A stretch of DNA of 64,000 nucleotides. It comes from a virus. Taxonomy: Duplodnaviria; Heunggongvirae; Uroviricota; Caudoviricetes. How positions within the stretch are numbered: the first letter of the stretch is position 1; each line of letters opens with the position of its first letter. Positions 9,001 to 15,000 of this stretch are shown piece after piece. Where the stretch lies: the IMG/VR virus record IMGVR_UViG_646311923_000012; one strand, 5' to 3'. The position numbers were made by a program.

Positions 9001-12000
9001 TTGGGGGAACGCCAAAGCTAAACCATTGCCAAACAGTCTGTTGAGCGACCCCCATATAACGACCTATTTCAGCCTGAGTGTATTTCTGCCTAATTTTTTC
9101 GCGAGTGCTATCTAGCATTTTGCCCTCCTCTAAAAACTATAAGCAAAGCCTACAATAAAAAACTGTATGCAATCAACAGTTTTTTATTGTGATGCTTTTA
9201 ACAGTATTTACCTGTAAAATTGAATAATGATGAGCGCCCTAGAAGTATCTATGTACAGAATCAGCAAGCTTCTTCAGGAAACTGGATGGAGCCAGGCTGA
9301 GCTTGCCCGTAGAATTGGTGTGACACAACAAACTGTTCAACAATGGGTCAGCGGTAAGGCTACACCTAAAGCCTCAAGTTTGGATAAACTGGTTGAGGTT
9401 TCAGGGCATCCATTGCATTGGTTTTTATTGCCTCCTGAAGAGTGTGAGCAAATTTTCACCCCTGACACGATGAAAATTGGTCCTCGCCAACGCGAACTGC
9501 TCCAAGCTTTTAGTGCGTTTCCTGAGGAAGACCAAGAAAAAATGCTTCAAGAAATCAAAGACAAGAAAAAATCAATGGAAGAAACCATTGCTAGGTGGCT
9601 GGCGGCACAAAAAAGCCGCCGGGCGTGACCACAGTACAAGAAGAGGAGTTATGCCATGGGTACAGCCCTTTCTCCGATAGTTTCAGAATTCGAAACTACC
9701 GAACAAGAAAACAGTTACAACGAATGGTTGCGCACTAAAGTAACGTCAAGCCTTGCAGACACTCGCCCCGCAATTCCACATGACGAGGTAATGGCTGAAA
9801 TGGAAAATCTTATTGCTCAAATTGCTGTAACTAACAAGAGCGAGTAATGTTACCCATTTTATGGCTACCGTCTGCTCGCGATGATTTGCGCCAGATCATA
9901 ACTTACATCGCCAAGGAGAACCCACCGGCAGCACGTAGACTAAAAATACGCATTGAAACATCGGTATTACCTCTATCTGAGCATCCGTACTTATATCCAC
10001 CAAGCGAACGGGTTTCTGGATTGAGAGAGATCGTGACCCACCCTAACTACATAATCCTGTACAGAGTAGCTGCTTCAAGCATTGAGATTGTAAGCGTGAC
10101 ACATTCTCGGCGACAATTTCCCTTCTCTATCTGAGTTGAACAATTTTCATACTCCCTCTTTCGAGGGATTTTTTTGCCCAAAACAACAATTAAAAACTGT
10201 TGACACAAAACAGTTTTTAATTGTAGATTACATAAACCAACCACCCACCCCGCCCCACAGAACGCCGGGCAATACTTCGAGTTACCAAGCAGTGGTCAGG
10301 GGGTAAGTAGCCAGCCCGAGGCGTATGAACATGACGGCAGGGTTCAACTTTAATAACTATGCAGCAGGTTTTTGTTCCGCTACCCGGCGTTAAGGGGAAA
10401 TGAGGTCAACATGGATACTATCGATCTTGGCAACAACGAATCTCTGGTGTACGGCGTGTTTCCCAACCAGGACGGTACATTCACCGCGATGACGTATACC
10501 AAAAGCAAAACGTTTAAAACCGAAAATGGTGCCCGTCGCTGGCTGGAAAGAAACTCAGGTGAGTGATATGGATTTCGACACAATCATGGAAAAGGCTTAC
10601 GAAGAATACTTCGAAGGCCTTGCCGAAGGCGAGGAAGCTCTCAGCTTCAGTGAGTTTAAACAGGCGCTTTCCAGTTCGGCAAAATCTAACGACTAACGGA
10701 GTTAAAGATGGAATTTAAAGATTTACTAAAAGAAATCCAGGAAATTGCAGCACATGCACTTCACCAACGTCTGAACGAAGTTGAATTAGAATCTGCAACG
10801 AAGAAATACATTGATAATATGGCTCGTAATGTGCGCGATGCGTTTACCGGATTGTACTCTGTTTCGGTAACAAACAACCAGAATACTGAAGAAACTGCAA
10901 AGCGGATTGCCTCGGTGATGGGTTTTCATGTCGAGGAAAAGTATTCAAAAAAAGAATTCTGGAAAACTACAAAAAAATTGCAGAGCGAGAACTGTCATCT
11001 CCTGCGGCAATCGCTTCTTTCTATGAGGAAAGTTATTCAGATGACACAGGATTACCGGAACTGCTCTCATTACTTGAAAAATTCGGAATTATCATGAAAG
11101 GGACTGCGTCGGCGGATTTCACATACTCAATGATGGCTGCTGATGGAGAGCCTTTTCCTCCCGAACTTAAAATAACCCCCGGCAATCATCCGATGGTAAC
11201 AATAAGAGCAATAGAGAATTACTGGTTTAATCCAGTTCAACAATAGTTGGTCTTTGCAATATTTTTAATGGGCCACTACGCCCTTAATCTCGGGCGGCGT
11301 TTAACTCTTTATTCAGTAAATCAGACTGATACTGATTTGGCTTTGTAATGATACTGTCAAGTTTTGATATATGAAATTCAACATGTTCTGGACAGTTAAA
11401 AATGTAATAACCGCCCTTCTCTAAAAAGCCAGAAAGAGCGTTACAGGCAGGGCATGGTTTGTTTGGCATTTTATCCTCCATTAAGGGCTGAATTAAAAAT
11501 GGAGACCAACACGCTGCTACGTGTGGTCGTGCGCCGGACACAGATAAGAATCCGGCACTGACAGTTTACTGAAAGGATATATCCCTGAAAAGTCAGGGCA
11601 TAACACGAAAGTGCACGGCGAAGTCCTTCTCCCTTAGAGCCGTCGTTAAATTTAATTCGACCGTGCGCTTCCGGTTGTGGCAATCCGCGAAATGGCGCGG
11701 CGGTAAGTATGGCGGGGTTATTCTTTCCCCGTTGAGGACACCGGGTTGTCAGGTTGACCATACGCTTAAGTGACAACCCCGCTGCAACGCCCTCTGTTAT
11801 CAATATTCTGGTGACATTTGGCGGTATCAGTTTTACTCCGTGACTGCTCTGCCGCCCTTTTTTAAAAGTGAATTTTGTGATGCGGTGAATGCGGCTCAGC
11901 GCACGCGGAACAGTTAAATCGGTAAAGCGGTCATTTGCTGAGTAACGAGAATGCTCTGTATCCGGCGTTAATTGTTAACTGGTTAACGTCACCTGGAGGC

Positions 12001-15000
12001 ACCAGGCACCGCATCACAAAATTCATTGTTGAGGACGCGATAATGGAAAAGTTATCATGTAATGCCAGCACGTCTGAACTTCGTTTCGAAATTGGCGTTA
12101 TCACTGGAGACAAAACATTTATTGAAGACGCCATTAAGCAGAGAAAACTCGAGCAGGACCTGTTAAATGAAGTATGCATTCCTTCAATGCTGGCTCGTCT
12201 GGACCTGCTGCAAAAAGGATATAAACAATGAATACAACATTTGCACTCGTTCTGACAGTTTATCTTGTTTCCGGCGAATCTCTTGAGCTGGTGACTGGCT
12301 TATACGGTTCAATGAAAGAATGCATGGCTGCAGCAGCAGAACAAAAAATTCCCGGTAACTGTTATCCGGTAGATAAAACTACTCACACTAATAATAACGA
12401 AATACCGGCAGGACTTTAAAACAGCACCGTAATTAATATCCGGTTTCATTTTTATATGCCAGCAATGGCAGGGATTTGTTCACCCTTAAATCTGTAATGA
12501 GGTTAAAACACAATGAGTAAAATCTTTATTTGCGCTGCTATTCCTGACGAACAGGCCATAAAAGAAGATAGCGCTGTTGCGGTGGCCACTGCCATTGAAG
12601 CCGGTGATGAGCGTCGCGCACGCGCAAAATTTCACTGGCAATTTCTGGAGCAATTCCCGGCAGCTCAGGACTGCGCTTATAAATTTATTGTCTGCGAGGA
12701 TAAACCCGGCATACCCCGCCCTGCCCTCGATTCCTGGGATACCGAATATATGCAGGAAAACCGCTGGGATGAGGAGTCAGCTTCCTTTGTACCGGTCGAA
12801 CCAGAATCCGATCCGATGAACGTCAATTTTGACAAGCTGTCCCCTGAAGTACAGAACGCAGTCCTGGTTAAATTCGACACATGCGAAAACATCACCGTTG
12901 ATATGGTGATTAGCGCACAGGAATTACTACAGGAAGACATGGCAACATTCGGCGGACATATCGTTGAAGCGTTGATGAAAATGCCAGAAGTTAACGCCAT
13001 GTATCCTGAACTTAAACTGCATGCCATCGGGTGGGTTAAGCATAAATGTGAGCCTGGCGCTAAATGGCCTGAAATTCAGGCAGAGATGCGCATCTGGAAA
13101 AAACGTCGCGAAGGTGAACGCAAGGAAACCGGAAAATACACGTCTGTTGTTGATCTCACCCGCGCCAGAGTCAACCAACAGAACACTGAAAACGCTGCTG
13201 AAAAAACCGGGGCTGTCACTGTTGCCATTCGCCGCGAATACAAACAGACATGGAAAACACTCGACAATGAACTGGCCTGCGCCCTCTGGCCCGGTGATGT
13301 GGATGCAGGAAACATTGACGGTACCATCCATCGCTGGGCGACAAATGAGGTTATCGACAAGGATCGCGAAGACTGGAAGCGTATCTCAGCATCAATGCGC
13401 AAACAGCCCGAAGCACTTGGCTATGACCGTCAGACTATTTTTGGCCTTGTTCGCGAACGTCCGATCGATATTCACAAAGATCCCGTTGCACTGAACAAAT
13501 ATATCAGTGAATACCTGACGACAAAGGGCGTGTTTGAACATGAAGAAACAGACCAGAGCTCTACTGATGCTCTCCAGCCGTCAGCAGCACAAACTGCTCC
13601 AGTGGAGACGGCAGAATCCGATACTCAAAAAAATGAAATCCTGGTGGAAGCTGAACCATCTGTAGAGCGTGAAGGACCATTTTATTTCGTCTTTACCGAT
13701 AAGGGCGGGGAAAAATACGGCAGGGCAAACAAACTTTCTGGTCTGGACAAGGCGCTGGCTGCCGGCGGTACCGAAATCTCAAAAGAAGAATATTTTGCCC
13801 GAAAAAATGGCACATACACGGGCTTACCGCAAAATGTGGATACCGCTGAAGATTCCGAACAATCAGAGCCGGTAAAAGTTACCGCTGACGAAGTAAACAA
13901 AATTATGCAGGCAGCCAATATCAGCCAGCCTGACGCCGATAAATTGCTTGCTGCATCACGTGGTGAATTTGTTGAAGGGATTAGCGACCCGAATGATCCG
14001 AAATGGGTGAAAGGGATCCAGAGTCGCGACGCTGAGGACCAGAATCAGCCCAACGTGAAACAAAATGAGCCAGAAGCGGAACAAAACAGCCCGGATACGC
14101 AACAAAACGGGCCAGAAGAACAACAACCAGAACCAGCAGTGCAACAGGAACTGGAAAAAGTTTGCACCGCATGCGGTCAGACCGGTGGCGGCAACTGTCC
14201 TGACTGTGGTGCGGTGATGGGGAACGCAACCTACCTGGAAACATTCGATGAAGAGAATCAGGCTGAAGCTCAGAAAAATGATCCGGAGGAAATGGAAGGC
14301 ACTGAACATCTGCACAAGGAGAACACTGGCAGCGATCAGTATCACGCCAGCGATAATAAAACTGGCGAAACAGCAAATCCCTTAATTAAAGTGAACGGTC
14401 ATCATGAAATCTCATCCACCAGCAGGTTGTGGCACCATCTGATGATTGACCTTGAAACAATGGGAAAAAATCCTGATGCCCCGATTATCTCAATAGGTGC
14501 AATATTTTTCGATCCGCAAACCGGAGAGATGGGGCCAGAATTCAGCAAAACTATCGATCTGGAAACTGCTGGCGGAGTCATTGATCGGGACACCATTAAG
14601 TGGTGGCTGAAACAGTCACGCGAAGCGCAATCCGCCATTCTTACCGATGAAATCCCGTTAGATGATGCACTGCTGCAATTACGGGAATTTATCGACGAAA
14701 ACTCCGGTGAATTTTTTGTTCAGGTCTGGGGTAACGGTGCAACTTTCGACAACGTGATTTTACGCCGTTCATATGAACGGCAGGGGATCCCCTGCCCATG
14801 GCGTTACACCAATGATCGCGATGTAAGAACGATGGTTGCTCTGGGACTGGTGATGGATTTCGACGCAAGAACGACTATTCCATTCGAAGGTGAACGCCAT
14901 AACGCTCTGAACGATGCACGTTACCAGGCGAAATACGTTTCAGCCATCTGGCAAAAACTGCTCCCGAGTCAGGCTGATTTTTGATGTTCAACCCATATCG

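Follow-up and report, generated by a model that had tools for sequence, protein, structure and literature searches.

In the Qin prophage of Escherichia coli K-12, the repressor DicA holds down the promoter dicBp of the dicBF operon (ydfABC-dicF-dicB-ydfDE), and derepression leads to filamentation through DicF, a small RNA (sRNA), together with the protein DicB, an effect abolished only in the dicB dicF double mutant (PMC10448788). DicF is cut from a polycistronic transcript: cleavage by RNase III gives a 190-nucleotide (nt) product its 5' end, RNase E creates the mature 5' end, and the 3' end lies either at an intrinsic terminator (53 nt) or, in RNA that reads through, at a cut by RNase III (72 nt) (PMC10448788, PMC5069750). 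The sRNA pairs with ftsZ mRNA; its 3' part serves for ftsZ and pykA and its 5' end for xylR, and a 5'-end mutant keeps filamentation with much of the growth inhibition gone (PMC5069750). K-12 DicB acts through MinC and ZipA to block Z rings, and it also protects against ManYZ-dependent phages (PMC6832061). Overexpression of K-12 YdfD lyses cells, and IspG binding is known for this protein (PMC8835842); the longest K-12 transcript detected ends 3' of ydfD (PMC10448788). Enterohemorrhagic E. coli (EHEC) O157:H7 carries several dicF or dicBF copies, with a role for DicF in pchA activation under low oxygen (PMC5069750, PMC7873438, PMC9438474); reviews put the number at four dicF copies in EHEC strains and describe DicF as activating pchA (PMC7873438, PMC9438474). 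Here we compare these systems with a dicF-dicB-ydfD module found at 11805-12419 (+) in a 64,000-nt stretch of a tailed-phage record, IMG/VR IMGVR_UViG_646311923_000012. This whole stretch is called the window below. The module is very probably part of a dicBF-type early-left operon that is still intact, in a lambdoid prophage from Shiga toxin-type E. coli (STEC), and the K-12 mechanism would carry over to it.

The likeness to K-12 Qin is extensive. Both have the same gene order and a PL-type operon 3' of a CI-like repressor, the same ATGA overlap between dicB and ydfD, and an exonuclease/ydfE-type gene followed by int. ydfA and ydfB are ∼99% identical to their Qin counterparts, and the pre-DicF leader, DicF and the dicF-dicB spacer are ∼97-99% identical. 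The two loci differ in the alleles that they carry and in what surrounds them. DicF here has T1A and G12A, DicB is only 55% identical and the YdfD-like protein 63% identical to K-12, and the repressor, 28% identical to DicA, faces other operators. Where K-12 has ydfC, the window has an unrelated gene for 129 amino acids (aa) and a convergent 61-aa gene; repressor and promoter are separated by an inserted relBE-like pair, and YdaS/YdaT-type genes stand where Qin has dicC-ydfX-ydfW. Homology to K-12 resumes at ∼11538, some 270 nt 5' of DicF. From the multicopy dicF loci of EHEC O157:H7 (prophages of Sakai, EDL933 and 86-24) nothing sets the module apart by sequence, the copies compared in two genomes taken to be of this serotype being 99.9% identical.

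The original prediction placed the DicF sRNA with its terminator, a 62-aa DicB and a YdfD-like protein in this region, and all three are there. The 53-nt form of DicF lies at 11805-11857 (+), with a single-stranded 5' seed (nt 1-15) followed by the terminator hairpin; a U6 tract at 11858-11863 (+), read directly from the sequence, forms the Hfq-type 3' end of the intrinsic terminator. Rfam RF00039 matches 11806-11857 on the same strand over model positions 1-52 of 52 with 77.0 bits (E = 2.9e-15; gathering score, 48 bits); chance can be discounted for this score and for those of the two proteins below. Alignment to K-12 dicF, which had been proposed as a check, gives 51 of 53 matching nucleotides; the only substitutions are T>A at the first nucleotide and G>A at nt 12. 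The terminator hairpin has the same fold in both alleles (-15.9 kcal/mol), with T6 directly 3' of it in the window. The ftsZ-pairing 3' part retains the K-12 sequence, and the duplex calculated in silico between DicF nt 24-53 and ftsZ -29..0 is equal for both alleles (-27.9 kcal/mol). The ftsZ and xylR target sites are essentially invariant in E. coli, O157:H7 included: 5388 of 5424 genomes keep the ftsZ leader at 99% identity or more, and 5393 of 5408 do so for the xylR site. Position 12 of DicF is naturally polymorphic, being G, A or T among 129 dicF copies. The prediction named two kinds of damage that would undo it, in the dicB reading frame and in the DicF seed region. The frame is intact and the ftsZ-pairing part unchanged, so that neither kind of damage is present as far as FtsZ is concerned; the single internal change, G12A, falls in the 5' seed.

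A divergent STEC-type allele of dicB directly follows dicF at 12043-12231 (+), with an ATG at 12043, a stop codon ending at 12231 and 62 codons. A Shine-Dalgarno sequence (GAGGA, 12031-12035) stands seven bases 5' of the ATG, the intergenic RNA and Shine-Dalgarno sequence are conserved, and the position of the ATG is common to ∼100 loci. Family models match over residues 1-62: Pfam DicB PF05358 with 131.8 bits (E = 7e-39; cutoff, 27 bits) and NCBIfam NF049927 with 123.7 bits (cutoff, 100 bits). The frame of dicB is intact, and the proposed alignment to K-12 shows a protein of limited identity. The ratio of nonsynonymous to synonymous substitution rates (dN/dS) between the window and K-12 dicB is 0.54 (dS, 0.56). 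It ranges from 0.41 to 0.54 between dicB allele classes, which rules out positive selection on the gene overall. For the ydfD-like gene the ratio against K-12 is 0.35 (dS, 0.64). These values indicate purifying selection on both genes, somewhat relaxed. An 82-aa open reading frame (ORF) on the minus strand, 11931-12179, overlaps dicB and was set aside as a non-coding by-product.

The ydfD-like gene, of 63 aa, lies at 12228-12419 (+). Its start overlaps the dicB stop codon exactly as in K-12, and translation is probably coupled to that of dicB through this overlap. The product matches Pfam DUF1482 (PF07358; 69.2 bits, E = 2.8e-19; cutoff, 25 bits) and phrog_1092 (117.5 bits). Besides this score it has the expected length of ∼63 aa, a hydrophobic N-terminal half, two Cys and intact termini; C32, C45, the N-terminal MN and the C-terminal EIPAGL of K-12 YdfD are all kept. 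In the K-12 protein, single-residue deletions or substitutions at the termini lower lysis (PMC8835842). A pattern scan placed a weak terminator-like hairpin 3' of the gene at 12457-12470 (+). The roles ascribed to the module in the prediction, DicB and DicF as division inhibitors and YdfD as a lytic protein, agree with published K-12 work (PMC10448788, PMC5069750, PMC6832061, PMC8835842). The identification of the module is confirmed, and it is already known and ordinary.

Upstream of the operon lies the gene for a CI/DicA-like helix-turn-helix (HTH) repressor of 133 aa without a peptidase domain (9227-9628, +). Pfam HTH_3 matches residues 13-58 with 47.2 bits, and the alignment to K-12 DicA covers 111 aa (E = 6e-12). 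The NCBIfam DicA subfamily model NF007257 scores 51.5 bits, short of its cutoff of 101. Judged by these comparisons, the protein is a DicA analogue of other specificity and not DicA. Two copies of a palindrome of the type ACAATAAAAAACTGT-N9-ACAGTTTTTTATTGT flank it. Each is 39 nt long. A repeat search found one, with 15-nt arms that are 100% complementary, at 9152-9190 in the interval between the repressor gene and a divergent YdaS-like cro-side gene; it is a candidate OR-type operator. The other, 79% identical to it, lies at 10186-10224, over a sigma-70-like promoter (TTGACA-18-TAGATT, 10200-10229, +) with 10 of 12 consensus matches that points to ydfA. This placing is the arrangement expected of OR- and OL-type operators, and 10186-10229 (+) is a candidate analogue of dicBp/PL, by analogy with DicA and dicBp (PMC10448788). 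In layout, then, the locus is of the DicA type, with a short HTH repressor and palindromes at the divergent and early-left promoters to which it would bind. The anatomy fits the predicted role of an upstream repressor in holding back a toxic early-left operon and so supports it. On the other side of the repressor gene and facing away from it are YdaS-like and YdaT-like genes (8437-9118, -), which may be Rac-type "toxins" or cro-side genes.

The operon itself begins with ydfA (10411-10566, +; Pfam DUF1391, 98.5 bits) and ydfB (10568-10696, +), both recognised by alignment with K-12 Qin and by the RefSeq annotation of an identical sequence in E. coli O103 RM8385. In the place of K-12 ydfC is the 129-aa gene (10708-11097, +; phrog_1363, 172.8 bits), which has no homology to K-12 ydfC in the Qin alignment. 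The convergent 61-aa gene (11284-11469, -; phrog_10133, 158 bits) lies between this replacement and the DicF leader; its product (MPNKPCPACN...NCPEH) resembles a zinc ribbon. A pattern scan found no terminator-like site between the 10200-10229 promoter and DicF's own terminator. The inserted pair at 9656-10134 (+), which separates the repressor gene from the early-left promoter, consists of a relB-like antitoxin (NCBIfam, 92 bits) and a toxin that is RelE/ParE-like, and it has its own terminator-like hairpin at 10153-10168. In lambda, this position belongs to rexAB.

Predicted RNA folds correspond to the published processing sites. For conservation we used 128 dicF-containing stretches from IMG/VR and species-representative genomes, found with an exact degenerate DicF pattern, of which 104 unique full-length loci were kept. 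In the leader, the region 11530-11864 folds with -117.6 kcal/mol (z = -3.35), and a long hairpin with imperfect pairing is predicted at 11599-11680 (+). By calculation, the 190-nt RNase III product known from the literature would start at ∼11668, within the 3' arm of this hairpin. The pairs of this hairpin are mostly invariant across the 104 loci or changed to wobble-compatible pairs. The dicF-dicB intergenic RNA (11859-12035, +) is also predicted to be structured, with -77.9 kcal/mol (z = -6.78) and none of 200 shuffles as stable. It is closed by a 21-base-pair (bp) helix of 11867-11887 with 12007-12027, and 7 further pairs join the U-tract 11859-11865 to UUGAGGA (12029-12035), which holds the dicB Shine-Dalgarno sequence. 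By the same reckoning, the published 72-nt form of DicF would end at 11876, midway along the 21-bp helix, and this helix would be where RNase III makes the 3' cut. As long as read-through RNA stays uncut, the helix would also mask the dicB ribosome-binding site, an idea that is apparently unpublished. Where pairs vary in the two helices, they mostly stay paired through G-C/G-U or A-U/G-U changes. Pair 11883/12011 shows 2 double changes, and one helix position breaks in 9 of 104 sequences. Covariation support is weak because the cassette is nearly invariant, so the proposed helices draw mainly on thermodynamics and the published cleavage ends. A 36-aa ORF in the leader (11663-11773) was set aside as a non-coding by-product.

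The window sequence itself gives the identity of the parts, intact reading frames, motifs for promoter and operators, predicted RNA folds and a calculated pairing with ftsZ, and from K-12 work we infer the following course of events. The CI-like repressor would sit on the 39-nt palindromes at the divergent region and at the PL-like promoter and keep ydfA-ydfB-orf129-dicF-dicB-ydfD off. Once repression is lifted, a polycistronic RNA would be made. RNase III would cut the hairpin ∼140 nt 5' of DicF and RNase E would then trim the mature 5' end, with the 3' end set by DicF's own terminator (53 nt) or, in read-through RNA, by RNase III on the long stem (72 nt). DicF, together with Hfq, would use its 3' half to pair with the ribosome-binding region of ftsZ, so blocking FtsZ synthesis. 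Read-through RNA would yield DicB, which would bring MinC to ZipA at midcell so that Z rings dissolve. It would also yield the coupled YdfD-like protein, whose K-12 version inhibits IspG and lyses dividing cells. For annotation, this fixes the early-left operon of a lambdoid prophage, distinguishes its repressor from DicA, and identifies alleles that differ from those tested in K-12. As a discovery it carries little weight: the module, its K-12 regulation and the EHEC multicopy loci are published, and the identical sequence is in RefSeq.

Over the 751 nt that surround the module (11700-12450), identity is 100% with RM8385 and 99.9% with the genomes ERL06-2497 and ATCC 43894 (bovine or laboratory-stock), which we take to be O157:H7, although their records give no serotype. 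RefSeq annotation of the matching sequence gives dicB and a "DUF1482 family protein." Some match to this query turns up in 4631 of 5426 complete E. coli genomes, and a single genome can have as many as nine such places. The majority of the matches are ∼83% identical and of the K-12 type, and 397 complete-genome records are at least 99% identical to the window. The window alleles are a minority haplotype. Three DicB classes occur in our sample of loci, all of 62 aa: the K-12 type, a second one ∼62% identical to K-12, and the window type. Window-type DicB was found together with DicF A1/A12 and window-type YdfD in 5 of 5 loci. The full 751-nt query also aligns, at 83% identity, to the functional temperate phages mEp460_ev081, Tritos and PhiR42_1, whose haplotype is of the K-12 type, and Tritos is annotated with DicF, DicB and YdfD. 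Functional phages with dicF-dicB-ydfD show the module to be an early-left function of live lambdoid phages. Among phage records, those nearest to the window version are from PPompW and Stx2a phages (92%); their match is confined to the non-coding cassette, positions 1-356 of the query.

That cassette is much more conserved than dicB and ydfD. Across the 104 loci, mean column entropy is 0.05-0.2 per segment for the leader, DicF and most of the spacer (∼11650-12042), compared with 0.37 in a variable spacer patch (11919-11951), 0.58 in dicB and 0.77 in ydfD. Between the window and K-12, the cassette likewise diverges by about 1-3%, a few per cent, outside the variable patch, as against the synonymous divergence of dicB and ydfD given above. 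Because the loci were picked with a DicF pattern, conservation close to DicF is overstated, but entropy climbs from 12025 on and through dicB, 150-200 nt away from that pattern. The cassette would be either a strongly constrained RNA or a recombination linker shared by mosaic phages, or both. What follows it can change. In three loci from IMG/VR and a metagenome bin (L008, L033 and L035), a KilR-type septation inhibitor (phrog_294, 104-118 bits) begins at the dicB start position, and this swap suggests that the slot behind DicF holds differing protein division inhibitors. Three other loci have a non-ATG, different reading frame after the spacer, which is taken to be Rha-like, and one more lacks dicB. 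A DicF scan of one genome per species yielded just 7 loci, in Escherichia, Shigella and a few metagenome bins where contamination is probable, and with them no wide diversity on which to judge covariation. The lambda Kil protein and KilR of Rac occupy the same place and follow the same logic, as small division inhibitors, directed at FtsZ-ring assembly, in a repressor-controlled early-left PL operon, and they have no sequence relation to DicB. Kil is described as acting on FtsZ via ZipA, with MinC not needed (PMC3961180). An invariant RNA cassette with DicB and KilR exchanged behind it is a modest lead for sRNA biogenesis in phage operons, and the divergent STEC haplotype is a second modest lead.

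It is tempting to carry the K-12 phenotypes over to the window alleles as they stand. How far can this be done? Several observations weigh against a full transfer. The divergence between K-12 and window DicB is greatest in the N-terminal 14 residues (MEKLSCNASTSELR here, MKTLLPNVNTSEGC in K-12): position 5 is Ser where K-12 has Leu, and residues 2-14 match at 5 of 13 positions. Mutagenesis of K-12 DicB found its N-terminal 13-14 residues critical, and L5A abolishes toxicity (PMC4967827); this determinant (residues 2-14, Leu5) is not found in the window protein. It is a functional and not a family-defining determinant, and its lack leaves DicB membership intact and lowers confidence in equal activity. 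In DicF, K-12 nt 5-17 form 13 contiguous bp with xylR +7..+19; G12A introduces a central A.C mismatch, and the calculated duplex is -14.5 instead of -20.3 kcal/mol, 5.8 weaker. The allele may be weaker on 5'-seed targets, and part of the non-ftsZ toxicity of DicF may therefore be lower. The YdfD-like protein matches no NCBIfam model, and the NCBI annotation pipeline PGAP labels it only "DUF1482 family protein"; the name "lysis protein YdfD," given to K-12-type copies, is not applied to the window type. The upstream repressor differs from DicA, and its binding to the palindromes is predicted from their placing. The convergent 61-aa gene lies within the transcription unit, where interference could occur, and its transcript would be antisense to the DicF precursor. 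Finally, the allele set is known from sequence, and repression, processing and all phenotypes are carried over from K-12; toxicity, MinC dependence, xylR control and IspG inhibition for this haplotype are extrapolations from K-12 alleles. Toxicity on derepression, as originally predicted, is plausible for them by analogy.

These differences could mean that the module is expressed in a functionally shifted form, with ftsZ control kept, 5'-seed targets lost or changed, DicB and YdfD acting differently or more weakly on MinC, ManYZ or IspG, and toxicity smaller or of another kind. We consider this unlikely. It draws on the weakened xylR duplex at a site invariant in 5393 of 5408 genomes, on the K-12 DicF 5'-end mutants that filament and lose much growth inhibition (PMC5069750), on the changed N-terminal segment of DicB with L5>S (PMC4967827), and on the joint occurrence of the three alleles in 5 of 5 loci. 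Yet the family matches are full-length and high-scoring, dN/dS is below 1 for dicB and ydfD, and the termini and both Cys that are important in K-12 YdfD are kept (PMC8835842). Polymorphism at DicF position 12 in many prophages suggests tolerance, and EHEC DicF, in one or more of its copies, is reported in reviews to be active on pchA (PMC7873438, PMC9438474). No pchA/PerC-type gene is annotated in the RM8385 counterpart of the prophage carrying the module. A stronger form of the idea makes the STEC-type haplotype a retargeted module instead of a plain orthologue, with a seed unfit for xylR, a replaced DicB N-terminus, different engagement of MinC, ZipA and ManYZ, and the cassette as a fixed platform for swapped inhibitors (three DicB classes or KilR); this we regard as distinctly improbable. 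It would be very surprising if the module were intact but effectively never transcribed, through the relBE insertion and its terminator, the replaced ydfC region or the convergent gene, so that repressor loss produced neither DicF nor DicB. The terminator-like hairpin at 10153-10168, the convergent gene at 11284-11469, and a region from ydfB to the DicF leader that is unlike both K-12 and the closest genome would fit such silence. The hairpin, however, precedes the candidate promoter, and the interval from there to DicF is free of terminator-like sites. Purifying selection on both ORFs and the near-invariant processing cassette argue for use, as does a haplotype kept at least 99% identical in 397 complete-genome records.

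A further possibility, which we doubt without dismissing it, is that loss of the repressor is toxic mainly through other causes, the lytic programme or the YdaS/YdaT-like genes, with DicF, DicB and YdfD as minor, kil-like accessory or superinfection exclusion functions. The YdaS-like and YdaT-like genes stand directly on the cro side, and a report on Rac describes growth arrest by YdaS/T upon RacR loss (10.64898/2026.09.06.749655). The window also contains RusA, Q and replication genes, and lysis and head genes follow in the RM8385 counterpart; the guarding of K-12 cells by DicB against ManYZ-dependent phages (PMC6832061) would suit an accessory role. With the repressor gone, the YdaS/YdaT-like genes and perhaps the prophage as a whole would be switched on too, and the module alone could not be credited with the toxicity. 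Against a dominant role for such causes, the filamentation of derepressed K-12 disappears only in the dicB dicF double mutant (PMC10448788), and in the RM8385 counterpart the portal gene is frameshifted and the tail genes stop at the tape measure, so that this copy is probably defective. Altogether, we favour the reading of an intact dicBF-type early-left operon with the K-12 mechanism transferred.

The window as a whole is a two-part mosaic: the early region of a lambdoid prophage, whose late region lies beyond window position 1, extends to int (15272-16291) and is followed by a second prophage that begins with a tail-fibre end and an espK-like gene. The first 25 kb match no complete genome end to end; the best match has 96% coverage and 98.0% identity. 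Downstream of ydfD, the 823-aa "exonuclease" at 12513-14984 (+) ends in an Rv2179c-like 3'-5' exoribonuclease domain (222 bits), has a long middle part that is acidic and of low complexity, and is the intact counterpart of K-12 ydfE, which is disrupted by IS2 there. At the left, a hokD/sok type I toxin-antitoxin locus occupies 2722-3046 (-), with Rfam sok at 2872-3046 (107 bits) and a hokD-type ORF at 2722-2934 that contains the annotated HokD (∼2723-2878). As a candidate for a Rem-like antirepressor beside hokD, as in Qin, we considered a 92-aa ORF at 2277-2555 (-) and rejected it, as it has no similarity to K-12 Rem. A gene for a 257-aa alpha/beta-hydrolase (3482-4255, +) lies between hokD and the replication genes on the strand opposite to its neighbours and has a moron-like look. 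Further to the right, the integrase abuts the tail-fibre end of the second prophage (region 15272-18464), the espK-like type III effector ORF (17103-18464) is identified by its position in the 98% identical genome 7_12_30A, and IS66-family genes occupy ∼19226-21841. Deeper in the second prophage, the region 50009-51202 (-) holds STnc100 at 50009-50181 (Rfam, 104.7 bits) together with genes for three tRNAs: Arg-tct, Arg-tcg and one with a CAT anticodon, which ARAGORN calls Met and the annotation of the RM8385 counterpart calls Ile.

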